Positions 1,196 to 32,401 of a stretch of 64,000 bases of DNA are shown in pieces. This DNA comes from a virus (taxonomy: Duplodnaviria; Caudoviricetes), in the IMG/VR virus record IMGVR_UViG_3300001594_000003, positions 64,001-128,000 of that record; one strand, written 5' to 3'. Numbering within the stretch: the first letter of the stretch is position 1; the number at the start of each line of letters is the position of its first letter. Both the position numbers and the translations under genes were made by a program. The notes beneath the pieces are model-generated. The model was not told where the DNA came from. It saw only the letters and a list, made by a program, of their open reading frames with translations, and searched no databases.

Positions 1196-1469
1196 CATGC
1201 ACTCGAACGTTTCGAGATTCGTTCTCCTAGCGCTACTTGTAATAGTTTTGTACATCTTCTGGACGTACAGCTACAAGGCGCCTGGCCGTGAGTCCGTAAT
1301 CTACACTCGCATGGATTGCATTCAAAGCGTATGTGTGTACAACAAAACCACGGGCGAGTTGTGTGCAGTTCGTAAGCCTACGGTTTCCGAGTTGATCATT
1401 GAAACTGATCCAAACAACTACAATGTTCGTAACATACGAGTGATACCAAGCGATGATTTATGCCAATGA
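1188..1469 (+). CDS. Small single-pass membrane protein, Cys-containing soluble domain
   Basis: TM FVLLALLVIVLYIFWTY; 4 Cys; overlaps upstream stop. Confidence 0.7.
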   Translation: MTNMHSNVSRFVLLALLVIVLYIFWTYSYKAPGRESVIYTRMDCIQSVCVYNKTTGELCAVRKPTVSELIIETDPNNYNVRNIRVIPSDDLCQ

Positions 1470-1478
1470 GGCTGCTCA

Positions 1479-2027
1479 ATGGATGCCATCCAAACCATTT
1501 TCAGTAGCCCTCTGCCAGTTGCCATATCCGCTGTAATTGCAGTAGCGTGCCTGGCCGGTTACTGGTTTTTTGTTATACCTATGCTTGAAGAGGTAAAGAC
1601 CCTCCGGGAGACCAACGTCGAACTCCAGAGCAAACTGGGCGGCGAGTTTGAACAACAGAAAGCGAGCATACAGCGATTCATGCAGGAAGTGATGACCGGT
1701 GTGCAGAATCAGCAGAATGTTGGTGAACTCGTGTCCGTAATAAACGCTCTGAGGACAACGGTCGAACAACAAACGAACGCACTGAACAGTACACTTGTTC
1801 GTATACTAGACGACATTCAGGAATCGATAGCGCGTCTAAGTCCAGTGATATCCAATCTTTCGGAAACTTCTGCTCGTAAAGACGATGAGATTCGGCGTGA
1901 GGTAGAACGTCTTGGTAGGTTGCTTGAGTCGCTTACTAGGACAGTCGCTGATATAAGCGACAAGCAAAGCCAAGTTGCCGGCGTCCTAACAGGAATGTCC
2001 ATCGCGTCTATGAACAGGAGTCTGTAG
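1479..2027 (+). CDS. N-terminal TM + long coiled-coil protein
   Basis: TM PVAISAVIAVACLAGYWFFVI then heptad-rich helix; GAGG RBS. Confidence 0.75.
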   Translation: MDAIQTIFSSPLPVAISAVIAVACLAGYWFFVIPMLEEVKTLRETNVELQSKLGGEFEQQKASIQRFMQEVMTGVQNQQNVGELVSVINALRTTVEQQTNALNSTLVRILDDIQESIARLSPVISNLSETSARKDDEIRREVERLGRLLESLTRTVADISDKQSQVAGVLTGMSIASMNRSL

Positions 2028-2037
2028 GAATTTAGAC

Positions 2038-2829
2038 ATGGCCTATGTGCTGAATAACATACGGTTTCGCTCCGTCAGCTCTAAAGCCCTTCAAGGGTAC
2101 TACGATTCCAAGTCCTTCATTTTGAATGAGTTGATTGACGAGCGAAAACAATTTAGCCAGGTCGCAAGAGAGGTGCTGCTGTTATTCTTCAACAGCTATT
2201 CCGATTGGGCGTCCAAGGTGGAGTATCTCTTACTTAATCGGAACGTGTTGGATGACTCGGATATCCAGATTATCTTTCAACGTTTCGGTGAAGTAGTAGA
2301 AAGCAACAAACACATTTTCCGCGTGCATAGCGATGTGTTTAATGCTGATTTCATGCGGGTCTGGGGTAAGGTTCATTACCATATACCGCAAAACTTCAAA
2401 CGCAAAGTGCGCCGTGTGTCGGGCAAATCGCAATTGGAAGCGTACCCGCTCATTATAGATGCGTTGGTTAAAGCGTTGCAGTCAACGTTGTTTGAACTGT
2501 ACGAGGTCGATTGTCTGCTAGGCTCTAATTTAGTAGAGAAGCGTGTAACGACTAACGCATCGAACATGGATAACCTCATAACCTATATAGACGAAGGTGA
2601 CCTAGCGTACTATCGCAACACGGGAGTCTTCATCATTAAGGAGAGGTTGAACTACTATCTGGACGAAGTAATCCTACCGGGAATACAAGTTCCGATCGTG
2701 GTGAAAAACTACACGGAAGAAAAGATTGAATTGCAAAACGGCGTGGTTGTAGGCGATCAGCCATTGGCTAAACTGCTTACCGATATTCAAGAAAACCCAC
2801 GTATCAAAATTGTTGAAGTCCTTTCCTAA
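2038..2829 (+). CDS. Hypothetical cytoplasmic protein
   Basis: 263 aa ORF, AGGA RBS, tight operon spacing. Confidence 0.75.
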   Translation: MAYVLNNIRFRSVSSKALQGYYDSKSFILNELIDERKQFSQVAREVLLLFFNSYSDWASKVEYLLLNRNVLDDSDIQIIFQRFGEVVESNKHIFRVHSDVFNADFMRVWGKVHYHIPQNFKRKVRRVSGKSQLEAYPLIIDALVKALQSTLFELYEVDCLLGSNLVEKRVTTNASNMDNLITYIDEGDLAYYRNTGVFIIKERLNYYLDEVILPGIQVPIVVKNYTEEKIELQNGVVVGDQPLAKLLTDIQENPRIKIVEVLS

Positions 2830-2844
2830 ACGGAGAAGCATATA

Positions 2845-4584
2845 ATGCTCAAGAATGGTAACATTACGCTGCTCGGCGAAATTCGTGGTTTGAAGCCGCA
2901 ACGTCTCGCCGCCGACCCCATCGAAGCCGATCTGCGTCAAGGCCTCGTTTGGGTAAACACAACTGAAAAGGCTATGAAGTGGTACGACGGTGAAGTGATC
3001 AACCGTATCGCTACCGGTGACAGCCTCGACGAGTACATGCGTCTCGATGGCGCTGAAATGACTGGTCCGCTGCTGCTCTCCGGTGATGCTACCGAAGCTC
3101 TGCACGCTGTACCGTTCAGCCAACTGAACACCCTGCTGGAAGGCAAACAGGACGATATCACTGGTGCTGCCAGCACTGTCGTCACTGCTGATCTGACCGC
3201 AAGCTCCGTACTCGTTTCTGACGAAAACGGCAAGATCGCTGCTGGCACCATCAACGTCGCTACTCTGGGTTATCTGGACGGCGTCACCAGCAACGTTCAA
3301 ACCCAGCTGGACTCCAAGCAAGACGACCTCGGCTATGTGCCTGTTGATCGCGAAGGCGACACTCTGACCGGCGACCTGAACTTTAGCAACTCCGCTACTG
3401 TTACTGGTCTGCGTGCTCCTGTCAGCCAGACTGACGCTGTTCGTCTGATGGACCTGGACAACCTGGCTTCTGGCCTGGACTTCCAGCCGGACGTTCTCGC
3501 TGTTCAGCTGGACGATACTCTGGTCCCGTTCTCGCCGACCGAAGAAGTGATCGATCCTGATACTCAGGAAGTCACCACTCCTGCCTTCGATCTGCCTGAC
3601 TCGGTCGTTCGCTACATCGTAACTGACGCTTCCACCCTGAACGCTGCTTTCGGTACCATCGAAGGTCTGGAAGATGGCGATATCATCCAGCGTAATGCTG
3701 ACGATACCTTCAGCGTTGTCTACGACGTGAGCGAGCGTGGTCCTGGCGTACTGGCTTGGGATCGCGGTACTGCCAAGTTCATGAAGTACAACGGTACCAT
3801 CTGGAACGAGCACGGCGGCCTGAGCGGTGTTACTGCTGCTGACGGTCTGCGCAAAGAAGCCAACACCATCATGGTTGACTTCGGTGGTGGTGTTGAAGCA
3901 TCGGCTGAAGGTGCGCTGACTCTGGCTGTCGATGACGGTCTGGCTCTCGTCGATCCGACTACTGGCCTGGCTTCGACCGGTGCTGACGCTATCCTCGCTC
4001 TGGTTGCTCGCGCTACCGGCGGCCTGACTGTCACTGCTGAAGGTGTTGGCGTTGCCGCTGAAGGTATCGATGCTGACAAGCTGGCTGCCGCTGCTTTCGG
4101 TAACGGCCTGACTGGCGGTGCTGGTACTGCTGTTAGCGTTCGTGCTAATGCTGATGCCTCCATCGTCGTTGACGCTGACGGCGTTCGCGTTGGTGACCTG
4201 AGCGATACCTACGTTGCTCGCACTGGTGACACTTCGGTCGATGGTCAGCTTGCTGTTCCTGCTCCGACTGCTGAAACCAGCGCTACCAACAAGCTGTACG
4301 TTGATACCGCTGTTACTGGCGTAAGCGATGCCGTTACTGCTCTGTCTGACAACATCGCTCAGAGCCGCATGGTGTTCGATGGTACCGTCGGTGATGCAAT
4401 GGATACCTACTCCATTCAGCACAACTTCGGCGACAAGTACGTTCAAGTCACCGTGTATGACGAGAACGACAACGAAATCATGCCGGATACCATCCAGCTG
4501 ATCGACGCCAACAACGTCCAAGTTACCCTCGCCATCGCTCAGCGCATTCGCGTAGTGATCACCGGTCGCAAGGTCGCTGTTTAA
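2845..4584 (+). CDS. Abundant virion structural / fibre-like protein
   Basis: GGAG RBS, strongly biased codons, G/A/D/T-rich, motifs MTGPLLLSGD, DAVRLMDLD, ATNKLYVD, C-terminal IQHNFG domain. Confidence 0.8.
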   Translation: MLKNGNITLLGEIRGLKPQRLAADPIEADLRQGLVWVNTTEKAMKWYDGEVINRIATGDSLDEYMRLDGAEMTGPLLLSGDATEALHAVPFSQLNTLLEGKQDDITGAASTVVTADLTASSVLVSDENGKIAAGTINVATLGYLDGVTSNVQTQLDSKQDDLGYVPVDREGDTLTGDLNFSNSATVTGLRAPVSQTDAVRLMDLDNLASGLDFQPDVLAVQLDDTLVPFSPTEEVIDPDTQEVTTPAFDLPDSVVRYIVTDASTLNAAFGTIEGLEDGDIIQRNADDTFSVVYDVSERGPGVLAWDRGTAKFMKYNGTIWNEHGGLSGVTAADGLRKEANTIMVDFGGGVEASAEGALTLAVDDGLALVDPTTGLASTGADAILALVARATGGLTVTAEGVGVAAEGIDADKLAAAAFGNGLTGGAGTAVSVRANADASIVVDADGVRVGDLSDTYVARTGDTSVDGQLAVPAPTAETSATNKLYVDTAVTGVSDAVTALSDNIAQSRMVFDGTVGDAMDTYSIQHNFGDKYVQVTVYDENDNEIMPDTIQLIDANNVQVTLAIAQRIRVVITGRKVAV

Positions 4585-30810: not shown

Positions 30811-31112
30811 TCATTACTCTTTCTATGGCGCTGCCTTCCCACCATCAAATAGGTGATGAAGTATTTCTACATCCGAATCCGTGGCGCCAAACAACAGAGC
30901 GCAACTCGGGTTTTCTGTGTCGTGTCGATAAGGTAAACTTTAGATCGGGAAAGGTAACGTATGATCTGGCGCTTCACGTAGTGGAAGGTGATGGCGAAGG
31001 TAATCTCGAATCAAGATATTACGATGCCATCACTATAAAGGACGTCGATAGCTCGTTCGTTTACTCGATTAAAGATTTGGAAGAAAAGGACCATACGCAT
31101 GAAAGTTCGTAA
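30807..31112 (+). CDS. Hypothetical protein
   Basis: ATGA coupling, 101 aa. Confidence 0.7.
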   Translation: MIITLSMALPSHHQIGDEVFLHPNPWRQTTERNSGFLCRVDKVNFRSGKVTYDLALHVVEGDGEGNLESRYYDAITIKDVDSSFVYSIKDLEEKDHTHESS

Positions 31113-31803
31113 GCAGAGCGGCTGCGTAGTCTTTCGCTACAACCGCAACTTCGATTACGAGATACTGCTGGTCAAGTCCAGTGATGGTAAAGAGTGGGTA
31201 TTTCCGAAGGGTGGTGTAGAGTCTGATCTGACTGCGAAAGAGTCTGCCGCCAAAGAAGTGTATGAGGAAGCAGGCGTAGCGGGTAACATCCTGCAGACAC
31301 TCGGCAAGTACGAGTACAAGAAGAAGGGTCGCGACCAGAAAGTCACCATGTACTCGATGCTGTACACGCACGACACACCAGACTGGCCGGAGAAAGGACT
31401 ACGCAAGCGCAAGTGGTTCAGTTTTAAAGAAGCGCAGAAGAAACTACCGAAGATACTGCGTCCATTCCTGAAGGAGTTGAAGAACGGGAATGCGTTGGCG
31501 TTGAGTGCAAGCAATACGCTATCGCACTTAGCTGACCATTTCCGTGAACTGCCCGTGCTCAGCCAACACCCGTCAGAGGTTACCGTGGACGACGCAGACA
31601 ACTGCGTGTACATATCGGTATCGTTACCTAACGGCGATTTGCGATTGCAGATTGAGGAATGGGAACAGCACCCACTGTCACAAGCTCTTACCGTACACTA
31701 TGAGTTTTCGGGCGAAGACGAGAATCACGGCCACTTCAAGCGCAGCTCGCTGGATAGAGTGGTTGGTCACGTTGCACGTATCGTCGGAAAGTATGTAAGT
31801 TAG
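31099..31803 (+). CDS. Nudix hydrolase with C-terminal extension
   Basis: WVFPKGGVESDLTAKESAAKEVYEEAGV Nudix box. Confidence 0.9.
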   Translation: MKVRKQSGCVVFRYNRNFDYEILLVKSSDGKEWVFPKGGVESDLTAKESAAKEVYEEAGVAGNILQTLGKYEYKKKGRDQKVTMYSMLYTHDTPDWPEKGLRKRKWFSFKEAQKKLPKILRPFLKELKNGNALALSASNTLSHLADHFRELPVLSQHPSEVTVDDADNCVYISVSLPNGDLRLQIEEWEQHPLSQALTVHYEFSGEDENHGHFKRSSLDRVVGHVARIVGKYVS

Positions 31804-31808
31804 ACCTG

Positions 31809-31836
31809 AAAAAGGGAGCCACTTGGGCTCCCTTTT
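31809..31836. terminator. Bidirectional terminator between convergent blocks
   Basis: AAAAAGGGAGCC-ACTTG-GGCTCCCTTTT. Confidence 0.9.
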
Positions 31837-31852
31837 GTTGGCTTACGGAAAG

Positions 31853-31879
31853 AAAAACGGAGAGCCGAAGCTCCCCGTT
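31853..31879 (-). terminator. Intrinsic terminator with UUCG loop
   Basis: Minus strand AACGGGGAGC-TTCG-GCTCTCCGTTTTT. Confidence 0.85.
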
Positions 31880-32023
31880 GTAGCTCTGCTATAGAGCCGG
31901 CTTTCGCCTTCCGCACTTTGTTAACCGAGTCGTGGTATCTCGGAGATACAGGATCACCTCCCGCTGCAATGGCGTGAGAAGTGTCTCTCGCCCGCATATA
32001 GAAATTAGCTTTCGCGGGAGGTG
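31853..32023 (-). ncRNA. Candidate structured small RNA (or small-ORF mRNA)
   Basis: Stacked hairpins including GGC-GAAA-GCC, own terminator, TAATTT motif at 32007-32002, GGAGGTGATCC at 31961-31951. Confidence 0.5.
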
Positions 32024-32026
32024 CTG

Positions 32027-32401
32027 TTATTTGTTGAGCTTGGTGTACATGCGGAACACGTCAGCATTAAACTGACCCAACAACACCTCCTTCTCTTGTT
32101 TAGTGAACTCACGGTTATCGCCGAATTGAATGTTGGCAATCAGAGTCCAGAAGCCCTTACCCGGAAGTCCCGCGTCGGTTCCTGACTTGCGTACCACGAT
32201 CGCAGTGAGAGGCGGTAGCCGATGGCTTTCACAGAAGACGAAAATGTCTTCCAAGATAGGTGTCAGTGTGGAACCCAACTGGTTTCCGCTACTGGGCAGA
32301 CCAAACTGTAGCGCGATCTGCTCGTAGTTTGTGGTCTCCCCTACGCTTGCTTTTTCTACAAGGTAGGCGTATACGCGAGAGTTGATGCTTGCTTCTGCCA
32401 T
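32027..32401 (-). CDS. Hypothetical protein, winged-helix-like
   Basis: TNYEQIA..LPPLTAIVVRK..PGKGF; GGAG RBS. Confidence 0.7.
   Translation of the reverse strand: MAEASINSRVYAYLVEKASVGETTNYEQIALQFGLPSSGNQLGSTLTPILEDIFVFCESHRLPPLTAIVVRKSGTDAGLPGKGFWTLIANIQFGDNREFTKQEKEVLLGQFNADVFRMYTKLNK

Follow-up and report, generated by a model that had tools for sequence, protein, structure and literature searches.

What does a phage encode in an intergenic gap of 223 nt whose minus strand harbors a perfect complement of the 3' tail of 16S rRNA with no ATG behind it? The gap lies in a 64,000-nt stretch of DNA (the window), which belongs to an IMG/VR virus record of 149 kb (G000) that is about 56% complete and whose virion protein is 57% identical to its counterpart in Pseudomonas phage PaBG. 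A preliminary description of the window had proposed a discrete structured RNA at this locus, carrying a Shine-Dalgarno (SD) sequence that is hidden by an upstream anti-SD arm and exposed in a shorter transcript. The comparative analysis presented here gives good support to the view that the locus is the gene for a previously undescribed family of structured non-coding RNAs, one without a match in Rfam. As to its function, we tentatively favor, with a probability of roughly 0.4, an RNA that is not translated and uses an extended SD:anti-SD helix to dock on the 30S subunit, the exposure of the SD being coupled to the formation of a pseudoknot.

An RNA Family of Jumbo Phages

A 751-nt query from the locus aligned with the PaBG genome within the gap only (73.5% identity), leaving the flanking coding DNA unaligned. 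Pattern scans identified PaBG, L116 and L117 (contigs from sludge and soil, respectively) and L012, an uncultured jumbo phage of 275 kb, and a covariance model (R1) was built on these four sequences together with the window. R1 gave a single full-length match in each of Erwinia phage Y3, Yoloswag, pEa_SNUABM_2 and Dickeya phage AD1 (E ~1e-11 to 1e-12), and the model R2 added pEa_SNUABM_5, Yersinia phage fHe-Yen9-02, the Dickeya phages JA11 and JA29, and two uncultured lineages (L166 and L169). Covariance-model E values lie between 1e-9 and 1e-28 for PaBG, Y3, Yoloswag, AD1, pEa_SNUABM_2, _5 and _7, JA11, JA29, fHe-Yen9-02 and the uncultured jumbo phages, and with blastn 46 records of Erwinia/Dickeya jumbo phages were seen to contain the element. 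A single copy per genome is present in the three genomes checked (G000, PaBG and the L012 genome). Other searches were less productive: an initial strict DNA pattern had no match in IMG/VR, single-protein locus searches with the NUDIX protein encoded beside the gap and with a virion protein returned no relatives, and the pattern TCTCCGAG...CGACTCGG yielded 104 loci, mostly chance matches, from which only the known relatives survived a script filter.

Eight pattern matches in bacterial genomes were all rejected by the covariance model, and no cellular homolog was found. Among phages, neither the covariance model nor the pattern found the RNA in NCTB, Lu11, HRDY3 or AR9. Rfam 15 at gathering thresholds gave no match anywhere in the window, and allowing E values up to 10 on positions 31700-32150 produced only weak, terminator-like hits on the second terminator of the gap (Table 1); ARAGORN detected no tRNA or tmRNA. 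Neither the passages searched in the PaBG paper nor the papers on other jumbo phages that our searches returned contain a description of the RNA, and no transcriptome was found in the literature on these phages.

That the element is a folded RNA is indicated by an alignment of 17 distinct sequences (A9), in which four helices with 19 base pairs were scored. In these helices 95.2% of the cells are paired, compared with 29-46% when the 3' partners are slid by 1-3 columns; compensatory double changes occur in 14 of the 19 pairs, and none of 500 shuffles reaches the observed covariation. The discrete structured RNA of the preliminary description is thus borne out by conservation with covariation. 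The 186-nt long form, which includes the upstream arm, folds at -77.8 kcal/mol with a z of -6.1 relative to shuffles, and the 149-nt short form, starting after the TAATTT motif, reaches a z of -2.6.

The conserved core measures about 90 nt (31967-31878, minus strand) and consists, in this order, of (G)GAGGUGAUCC, two to three variable bases, AUCU(CC), an H-type pseudoknot, the P3 hairpin, and the P4 hairpin with its AUAGC loop. The P1 stem of the pseudoknot is paired in all sequences and has compensatory changes in 5 of its 6 pairs; in place of the CCGAG/CUCGG of the window, other homologs have CCUCG/CGAGG, CCCUG/CAGGG, CACUCC/GGAGUG or CGUGG/CCACG. The second helix of the pseudoknot (columns 33-37 with 56-60) is 87% paired with two covarying pairs, taking forms such as ACUAC:GUAGU, UACCA:UGGUA, CUGC:GCAG and CCAC:GUGG, and it contains an A.C mismatch or bulge in the window. 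Even the close relatives JA29 (UACUGCC:GGCAGUA) and JA11 (UACCGCC:GGCGGUA) are distinguished by a compensatory change in this helix. The order of the strands (S1a, L1 of 1-2 nt, S2a, L2 of 0-2 nt, S1b, an A-rich L3 of 8-11 nt, S2b) is that of a classical H-type pseudoknot.

Downstream of the pseudoknot, the GGC-GAAA-GCC and GCTCT-ATAGC-AGAGC hairpins and the UUCG-loop terminator, all three named in the preliminary description, were confirmed (Table 1). The P4 loop reads AUAGC in 14 of the 17 homologs and AUAGU in one, and the entire P4 hairpin is missing in the Dickeya phages JA11 and JA29, which reduces the core to the 5' block, the pseudoknot and P3. A GTATC/GATAC hairpin from the same description is not conserved and clashes with the covarying P1 stem that occupies its place in the family fold. 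A 5' hairpin ahead of the core shows stem-keeping changes in PaBG and L116 and is absent in the L012 group. A possible anti-terminator pairing between P4 and the terminator was rejected, as by eye it is not kept in PaBG or SNUABM_5.

Table 1. Positions of the RNA, its parts and its neighbors in the window
Feature	Positions	Strand	Remarks
124-aa open reading frame		-	Bounds the gap; stop TAA 32029-32027; homolog of PaBG gp205
Upstream anti-SD arm CACCUCCCGC	32014..32023	-	Complementary to 31964-31955; specific to this phage
TAATTT	32002..32007	-	Putative -10-like phage promoter core for the RNA
5' hairpin UGCGGGCGAGAG...CUCACGCCAUUGCA	31965..31996	-	Window/PaBG subgroup only
GGAGGUGAUCC	31951..31961	-	Invariant block; perfect complement of the 16S rRNA 3' tail
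AUCUCC, internal anti-SD mimic	31942..31947	-	3' strand of P0; its CC starts P1; AUCU invariant
P1 stem-loop CCGAG/CUCGG	31925..31943	-	Strands 31943-31939 and 31929-31925; 9-nt loop
Pseudoknot 3' strand GUGCGG	31911..31916	-	Pairs with P1 loop CCAC 31935-31932; preceded by A-rich linker 31924-31917
P3 hairpin GGC-GAAA-GCC	31899..31908	-	100% paired; 2/3 pairs compensatory
P4 hairpin GCUCU-AUAGC-AGAGC	31883..31897	-	95% paired; 5/5 pairs compensatory
Intrinsic terminator GGGGAGC-UUCG-GCUCUCC + U-tract	31850..31879	-	3' end of the RNA; terminator call at 31879-31856
Second, bidirectional terminator hairpin	31809..31836	both	A and U tracts on its flanks; STnc320 match weak, terminator-like
NUDIX gene	31099-31803	+	Convergent, on the other side of the gap

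The 16S Complement and a Putative P0 Switch

The only long stretches that are invariant in all 17 sequences are GAGGUGAUCC and, 2-3 nt downstream of it, AUCU. In 16 sequences GAGGUGAUCC follows a G, the Yersinia phage alone having U at this place. The sequence in which the preliminary description recognized a complement of 16S rRNA (GCGGGAGGTGATCC, 31964-31951, minus strand) is present as stated there, and this complement has turned out to be the most invariant feature of the RNA. The block is complementary to the entire free tail, from its 5' boundary to C1539, and in the JA phages the stop codon in front of it brings the complementary stretch up to 14 nt (UAAGGAGGUGAUCC). For E. coli 16S rRNA, the accepted sequence of this tail is 5'-GAUCACCUCCUUA-3', of which GAUCACCUCCU is conserved across bacteria (PMC5732282).

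The same block has a partner inside the RNA. Its GGAGGU can pair with the AUCUCC that follows to form a hairpin, P0, which is 100% paired across the family. The outer pair of P0 varies, being U-A in the Yersinia phage and G.U in the two JA phages. In the Yersinia phage, columns 7, 26 and 43 change jointly (to U, A and U) with both P0 and P1 kept, and in the JA phages P1 is maintained by U26 with A43, and P0 by G7.U26. Nested folding assigns P0 a probability of 0.5-1.0 in 8 of the 17 homologs. P0 and P1 have one or two C residues in common, and in the Alexandravirus group P0 reaches about 9 bp, extending over most of the 5' strand of P1. Because the two helices share residues and compete, the RNA can hold two states, and it looks bistable: in one state, the SD core would be closed and the pseudoknot incomplete, and in the other P1 and the pseudoknot would be formed, leaving the SD-like stretch single-stranded.

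Our main argument for 16S rRNA as the partner comes from the loop of P0. Its five invariant bases, GAUCC, are explained by no internal helix and extend the complementarity to 16S in exact register, an arrangement for which we estimate a chance of about 4^-5. This argues that the 16S tail is the selective partner of the block and that the loop would offer it a toehold.

The preliminary description had placed the gate elsewhere, in the arm CACCTCCCGC (32023-32014, minus strand) upstream of the RNA. This arm is real in the window, where it pairs with the SD in the fold of the long form, and is unlikely to be accidental; we put the random probability of such a repeat, 10 nt long and perfectly inverted within some 60 nt, at about 5e-5. 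It is, however, absent in PaBG, in which gene gp206 lies at that position, and in all other homologs, so that the pair of SD and upstream anti-SD is not conserved in relatives and the conserved gate, if there is one, is the downstream AUCUCC. Judged by this comparison, the upstream arm was added in this lineage and is no defining trait of the family.

As previously noted, no ATG follows the SD in the window. A 65-aa open reading frame (ORF) that crosses the element (31800-31997, minus strand) does not keep its frame, as the indels relative to PaBG are not multiples of three. From its sequence, the RNA is non-coding, because it has no ATG, because the CTG behind the SD is not conserved, and because indels break the frame. 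Gene calls also overlap or adjoin the element in other genomes: gp207 of Y3 (L132:2585-2722, plus strand) runs antisense across the RNA and its terminator, and the TAA stop of PaBG gp206 (L001:3001-3003) is the TAA within the TAATTT motif. These two calls and that of the 65-aa ORF look spurious or due for review.

A Promoter-Like Motif Upstream of the RNA

The TAATTT motif at 32007-32002 (minus strand), which the preliminary description had read as a promoter, is kept upstream of the RNA in five sequences (window, PaBG, L116, L012 and L117). In the 149-kb record, it occurs in 16 copies where about 70 are expected by composition, a roughly 4-fold depletion. Nine of these copies fall between genes (P = 3e-8), mostly 27-95 nt upstream of ORF starts, those of tail and structural genes included. 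In PaBG, 8 of 25 copies are intergenic (P = 1e-4). The motif often reads (g/a)(c/a)TAATTTa, and the sites in the window are at 2526, 13116, 19002, 26183, 28361 (+) and 63779, 32002 (-). A sigma-70 consensus was not found at the RNA locus, and PaBG-like phages encode a sigma-like factor of their own (PMC7412058). Enriched between genes and otherwise depleted in both G000 and PaBG, TAATTT is likely to be a promoter core of PaBG-like phages, consistent with the earlier proposal. Its enrichment upstream of ORFs makes it plausible that the RNA has its own promoter and extends for about 145 nt from the TAATTT site to the intrinsic terminator. Late timing, which had also been proposed, is only suggested by the association of TAATTT with structural genes.

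Proposed Docking on the 30S Subunit

In the reading that we favor, the 11-nt stretch would form base pairs with the free 16S tail and in this way dock the RNA on the platform of the 30S subunit. The GAUCC bases of the P0 loop would serve as the toehold for the tail, pairing with the tail would open P0, and the AUCUCC thus released would allow P1 and the pseudoknot to be completed. The pseudoknot, located 14 nt after GGAGG, would then block accommodation in the mRNA channel, and with no usable start codon and a stable pseudoknot at this distance, the complex would be unable to reach initiation. As a consequence, host 30S subunits could be occupied or modulated, or the RNA and any mRNA attached to it could be protected or tethered to ribosomes. 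A version in which the RNA binds the anti-SD tail of host 16S rRNA in trans, through toehold opening of a hairpin that mimics the SD:anti-SD helix, and by doing so reprograms, parks or labels 30S subunits in the course of infection, must be called doubtful.

Several observations weigh against docking on the 30S subunit. Around 45% of the phage gene starts, crudely called, have an SD-like motif, and as these phages thus seem to have SD-led genes of their own, titrating the anti-SD in bulk would harm phage translation too. Stoichiometry may pose a problem, as the RNA would face tens of thousands of ribosomes. The support for P0 consists of invariant bases and three variant sequences only, and GGAGGU may be conserved simply as the 5' strand of P0. 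All known hosts have the same 16S tail, which leaves no variation in the target for the block to follow. Finally, the absence of the RNA from the close relatives NCTB, Lu11 and HRDY3 indicates that it is dispensable for the lineage.

Genes Flanking the RNA

Flanking proteins were compared between the PaBG, L012 and Erwinia/Dickeya groups and are unrelated between them; the flanks of L166 and L169 are described from their sequence only. In the window and PaBG, the RNA is preceded by the gp205 homolog or gp206 and followed by the terminator and the convergent NUDIX gene. In L012 and L117, a DHFR gene, a terminator and TAATTT lie upstream and a 92-aa ORF with its own SD lies downstream. L166 and L169 have an 11-aa or 18-aa ORF downstream, followed by the terminator. 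In the Erwinia, Dickeya and Yersinia phages, an unknown gene of the replication cluster ends 0-12 nt before the RNA, and the terminator and the next gene follow. The terminator comes directly after the element in the PaBG, Erwinia, Dickeya and Yersinia phages, and only after an ORF in L012/L117 and L166/L169. These differences between groups point to a self-contained function of the RNA and argue against the regulation of one particular gene. Two candidate connections to neighbors were rejected: the 92-aa ORF of L012/L117 has no homolog in G000, PaBG, Y3 or AD1, which makes it no conserved partner, and a functional tie to the neighboring protein families finds no basis in flanking genes to which Pfam and PHROGs assign no function and which are not common to the groups.

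Some features of these surroundings deserve mention in their own right. The NUDIX hydrolase (31099-31803, plus strand) is 65% identical to PaBG gp207 and has about 100 extra C-terminal residues past the Pfam domain. The hairpin at 31809-31836 (AAAAGGGAGCC-CAAGU-GGCUCCCUUUUU) most likely serves as the terminator of this convergent gene; near-copies in the same record (G000:C1:123365-123405 and 133302-133331) indicate that the phage reuses a terminator cassette. The tiny ORFs in L166:888-1010 (+; 11 aa) and L169:6420-6543 (-; 18 aa) have a good SD and both end in ...GGUAAUUAA; they may encode leader-type peptides. In the enterobacterial jumbo phages, the RNA is embedded in a tandem array of genes that are probably paralogs, judging by products that begin M-(E/K)-(I/L)-x-(V/I)-S-L-S (L132 (Y3) 1408-3303, L133 (AD1) 2266-3382 and the downstream genes in L149-L152). 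Members of the array include phrog_31786 and phrog_28362, and one in pEa_SNUABM_7 is annotated as "RNA polymerase ADP-ribosylase".

Alternative Explanations

The alternative that fares best, although we consider it unlikely, is that of a protein- or ligand-binding RNA (a decoy, a scaffold or a riboswitch-like aptamer), of which P0, the pseudoknot and the AUAGC loop would form the recognition surface. The likeness to an SD would then be mimicry of the SD:anti-SD helix for some factor, or incidental, and 16S rRNA would not be the partner. The compact pseudoknotted fold and the invariant loop bases GAUCC and AUAGC are typical of recognition surfaces, and P0 is predicted to be stable in many homologs. 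Yet L1, L2 and the A-rich linker, the junctions and loops of the pseudoknot, vary by lineage, unlike a ligand pocket, and the JA phages do without the AUAGC hairpin. The position of the element beside varied genes fits a self-contained module, and the terminator that comes next in most lineages recalls transcriptional riboswitches, but in the window and PaBG there is no same-strand gene downstream and hence nothing to regulate, and no riboswitch in Rfam matches even at E = 10. A binding RNA also leaves the exact-register complementarity of the conserved loop to 16S unexplained.

A cis-acting mRNA element that captures ribosomes after termination, or provides a standby or recoding signal, and that acts on its own transcript only, is improbable. 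It would account for the placement of the upstream stop codon in the Erwinia, Dickeya and Yersinia phages, 0-12 nt ahead of GGAGG (AD1 has GCA-UGA-GGAGG, the JA phages CAG-UAA-GGAGG), and for the ORF with its own SD that follows the element in L012/L117 and L166/L169. In the window and PaBG, however, the upstream stop codon is 40-65 nt away and no ORF lies downstream, and in the L012 group the upstream gene is set off from the element by a terminator and the promoter-like motif. The neighboring genes that were compared are non-homologous across groups, and the 92-aa ORF, as stated above, lacks a homolog in G000, PaBG, Y3 and AD1. An SD followed by a pseudoknot does resemble bacterial recoding signals such as those of dnaX and prfB, which counts in favor of a cis-acting role. 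Against this, P1 is preceded by NN(N)AUCU with no slippery heptamer (X XXY YYZ), the upstream ORF stops before the SD in every genome examined, and there is no conserved overlapping or downstream frame.

Even less probable is a base-pairing small RNA (sRNA) whose seed GGAGGUGAUCC would target host or phage mRNAs with a GGAUCACCUCC-like sequence and not the ribosome. The predicted RNA has a layout like that of a trans-acting sRNA, with a conserved unpaired seed, an intrinsic terminator with a U-tail, and a putative promoter proposed from the enrichment of TAATTT. The 11-mer, however, is the sole exact copy in the window, which holds no 0-mismatch complement and two copies with 1 mismatch, and 16S rRNA would outnumber every other perfect target in the cell by a wide margin.

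A micropeptide from a non-AUG start can practically be dismissed: the CTG from which the preliminary description derived a 20-aa peptide is present in the window but absent in every other homolog, no other frame is conserved, and the invariant AUC 9-10 nt after GGAGG, although about 16-17 nt from the base that would pair with the 16S 3' end and thus at a spacing usable in E. coli (where the optimum is 10-21; PMC5732282), opens frames that run, by hand translation, from 3 to more than 50 codons, shift after indels in the P1 loop and yield no conserved peptide, while base variation follows the RNA helices and not codons. A sponge for CsrA/RsmA is likewise unlikely, as the RNA has no more than one or two GGA motifs, with conservation lacking for the second.

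Relation to Known Systems

Several known systems come close to the phage RNA in part. STAB-SD in the cry3A mRNA of B. thuringiensis, and the related polypurine 5' stabilizer of phage SP82, are thought to hold a 30S subunit on untranslated RNA (PMC4113751). Both STAB-SD and the phage block are SD-like and complementary to the 16S 3' end, and neither directs initiation; the phage RNA has its 11-nt complement with no ATG, GTG or TTG at 4-12 nt, where only the invariant AUC is found. In position, too, the block agrees with STAB-SD in L012/L117 and probably L166/L169, in which it lies near the predicted 5' end of an ORF-bearing transcript, but neither the window nor PaBG has an ORF downstream, and the element of the Erwinia phages is in a 3' untranslated region (UTR). 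STAB-SD differs further in being a bare sequence, found in mRNAs of Gram-positive bacteria, where it blocks RNase J1, a 5'-3' exonuclease, whereas the phage complement is longer (11-14 nt), is set in a pseudoknotted fold with an internal anti-SD partner, and in most lineages has no translatable sequence after it. We know of no RNase J1 in the Pseudomonas, Erwinia, Dickeya and Yersinia hosts.

A second parallel is provided by entrapment operators, such as the pseudoknot in the E. coli rpsO (S15) mRNA, which Marzi and colleagues are said to have described in 2007 as docking on the 30S platform. There, as is proposed here for the phage RNA, a folded pseudoknot is anchored to the 30S subunit by an SD:anti-SD helix, entry into the channel is barred and a stalled complex results. 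These operators, however, hold the real start codon of the regulated gene and need a ribosomal protein as a repressor, whereas the phage RNA has no start codon, in several lineages no ORF to regulate, and no known protein partner. The phage RNA resembles STAB-SD and the entrapment operators in principle, while its fold, the length of the complement, its hosts and the lack of a cognate ORF set it apart.

Other known classes also invite comparison. SD-sequestering riboswitches such as preQ1-II, SAM-II/V and NAD+-II are likewise compact H-type pseudoknots, with a third loop rich in A and an SD whose accessibility depends on alternative pairing, but the phage RNA has no Rfam match at the thresholds tried, its SD lies outside the pseudoknot, there is no start codon, and the junctions are not conserved. 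In a leader that sequesters its SD, a start codon would be expected after the SD, in place of which the phage RNA has the pseudoknot and then the terminator. The barley yellow dwarf virus-like translation element (BTE), a 3' cap-independent translation element of plant RNA viruses, pairs with 18S rRNA and is thus, like the phage RNA, a structured viral RNA with a complement to the rRNA of the small subunit, and in the enterobacterial phages the RNA also occupies a 3' UTR. The BTE belongs to RNA viruses of eukaryotes, however, and works together with eIF4F and through a kissing loop that reaches the distant 5' UTR, whereas GCUAU, which was considered as a kissing partner for the AUAGC loop of the phage RNA, is not enriched in 5' leaders. 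Nor does the RNA resemble the ToxI-like component of type III toxin-antitoxin systems: it is present in a single copy in the genomes checked, without repeats of about 36 nt and without a ToxI hit in Rfam, and its neighbors are the NUDIX gene and hypothetical proteins, where a gene for a ToxN-like endoribonuclease would be expected.

Implications

The family extends from jumbo phages of Pseudomonas to those of Erwinia, Dickeya and Yersinia, and for four of its members the host is in culture (PaBG with PAO1, Y3 with E. amylovora, AD1 with D. solani, and fHe-Yen9-02 with Y. enterocolitica), which makes the docking hypothesis directly testable. The results also call for a correction of annotations, as "hypothetical protein" calls lie over or beside the RNA in PaBG and Y3, and they provide, as a by-product, TAATTT as a candidate promoter motif for PaBG-like phages. 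The take-over of host translation by phages is known mostly through proteins. If the RNA does dock on the 30S subunit, its pairing with the 16S tail would add a new layer to this take-over, and the combination of an SD with an internal anti-SD and a switching pseudoknot would be a compact natural design. Acting in trans, the RNA would also be, to our knowledge, the first RNA-based, sequence-specific viral grip on the mRNA-docking site of the bacterial ribosome.

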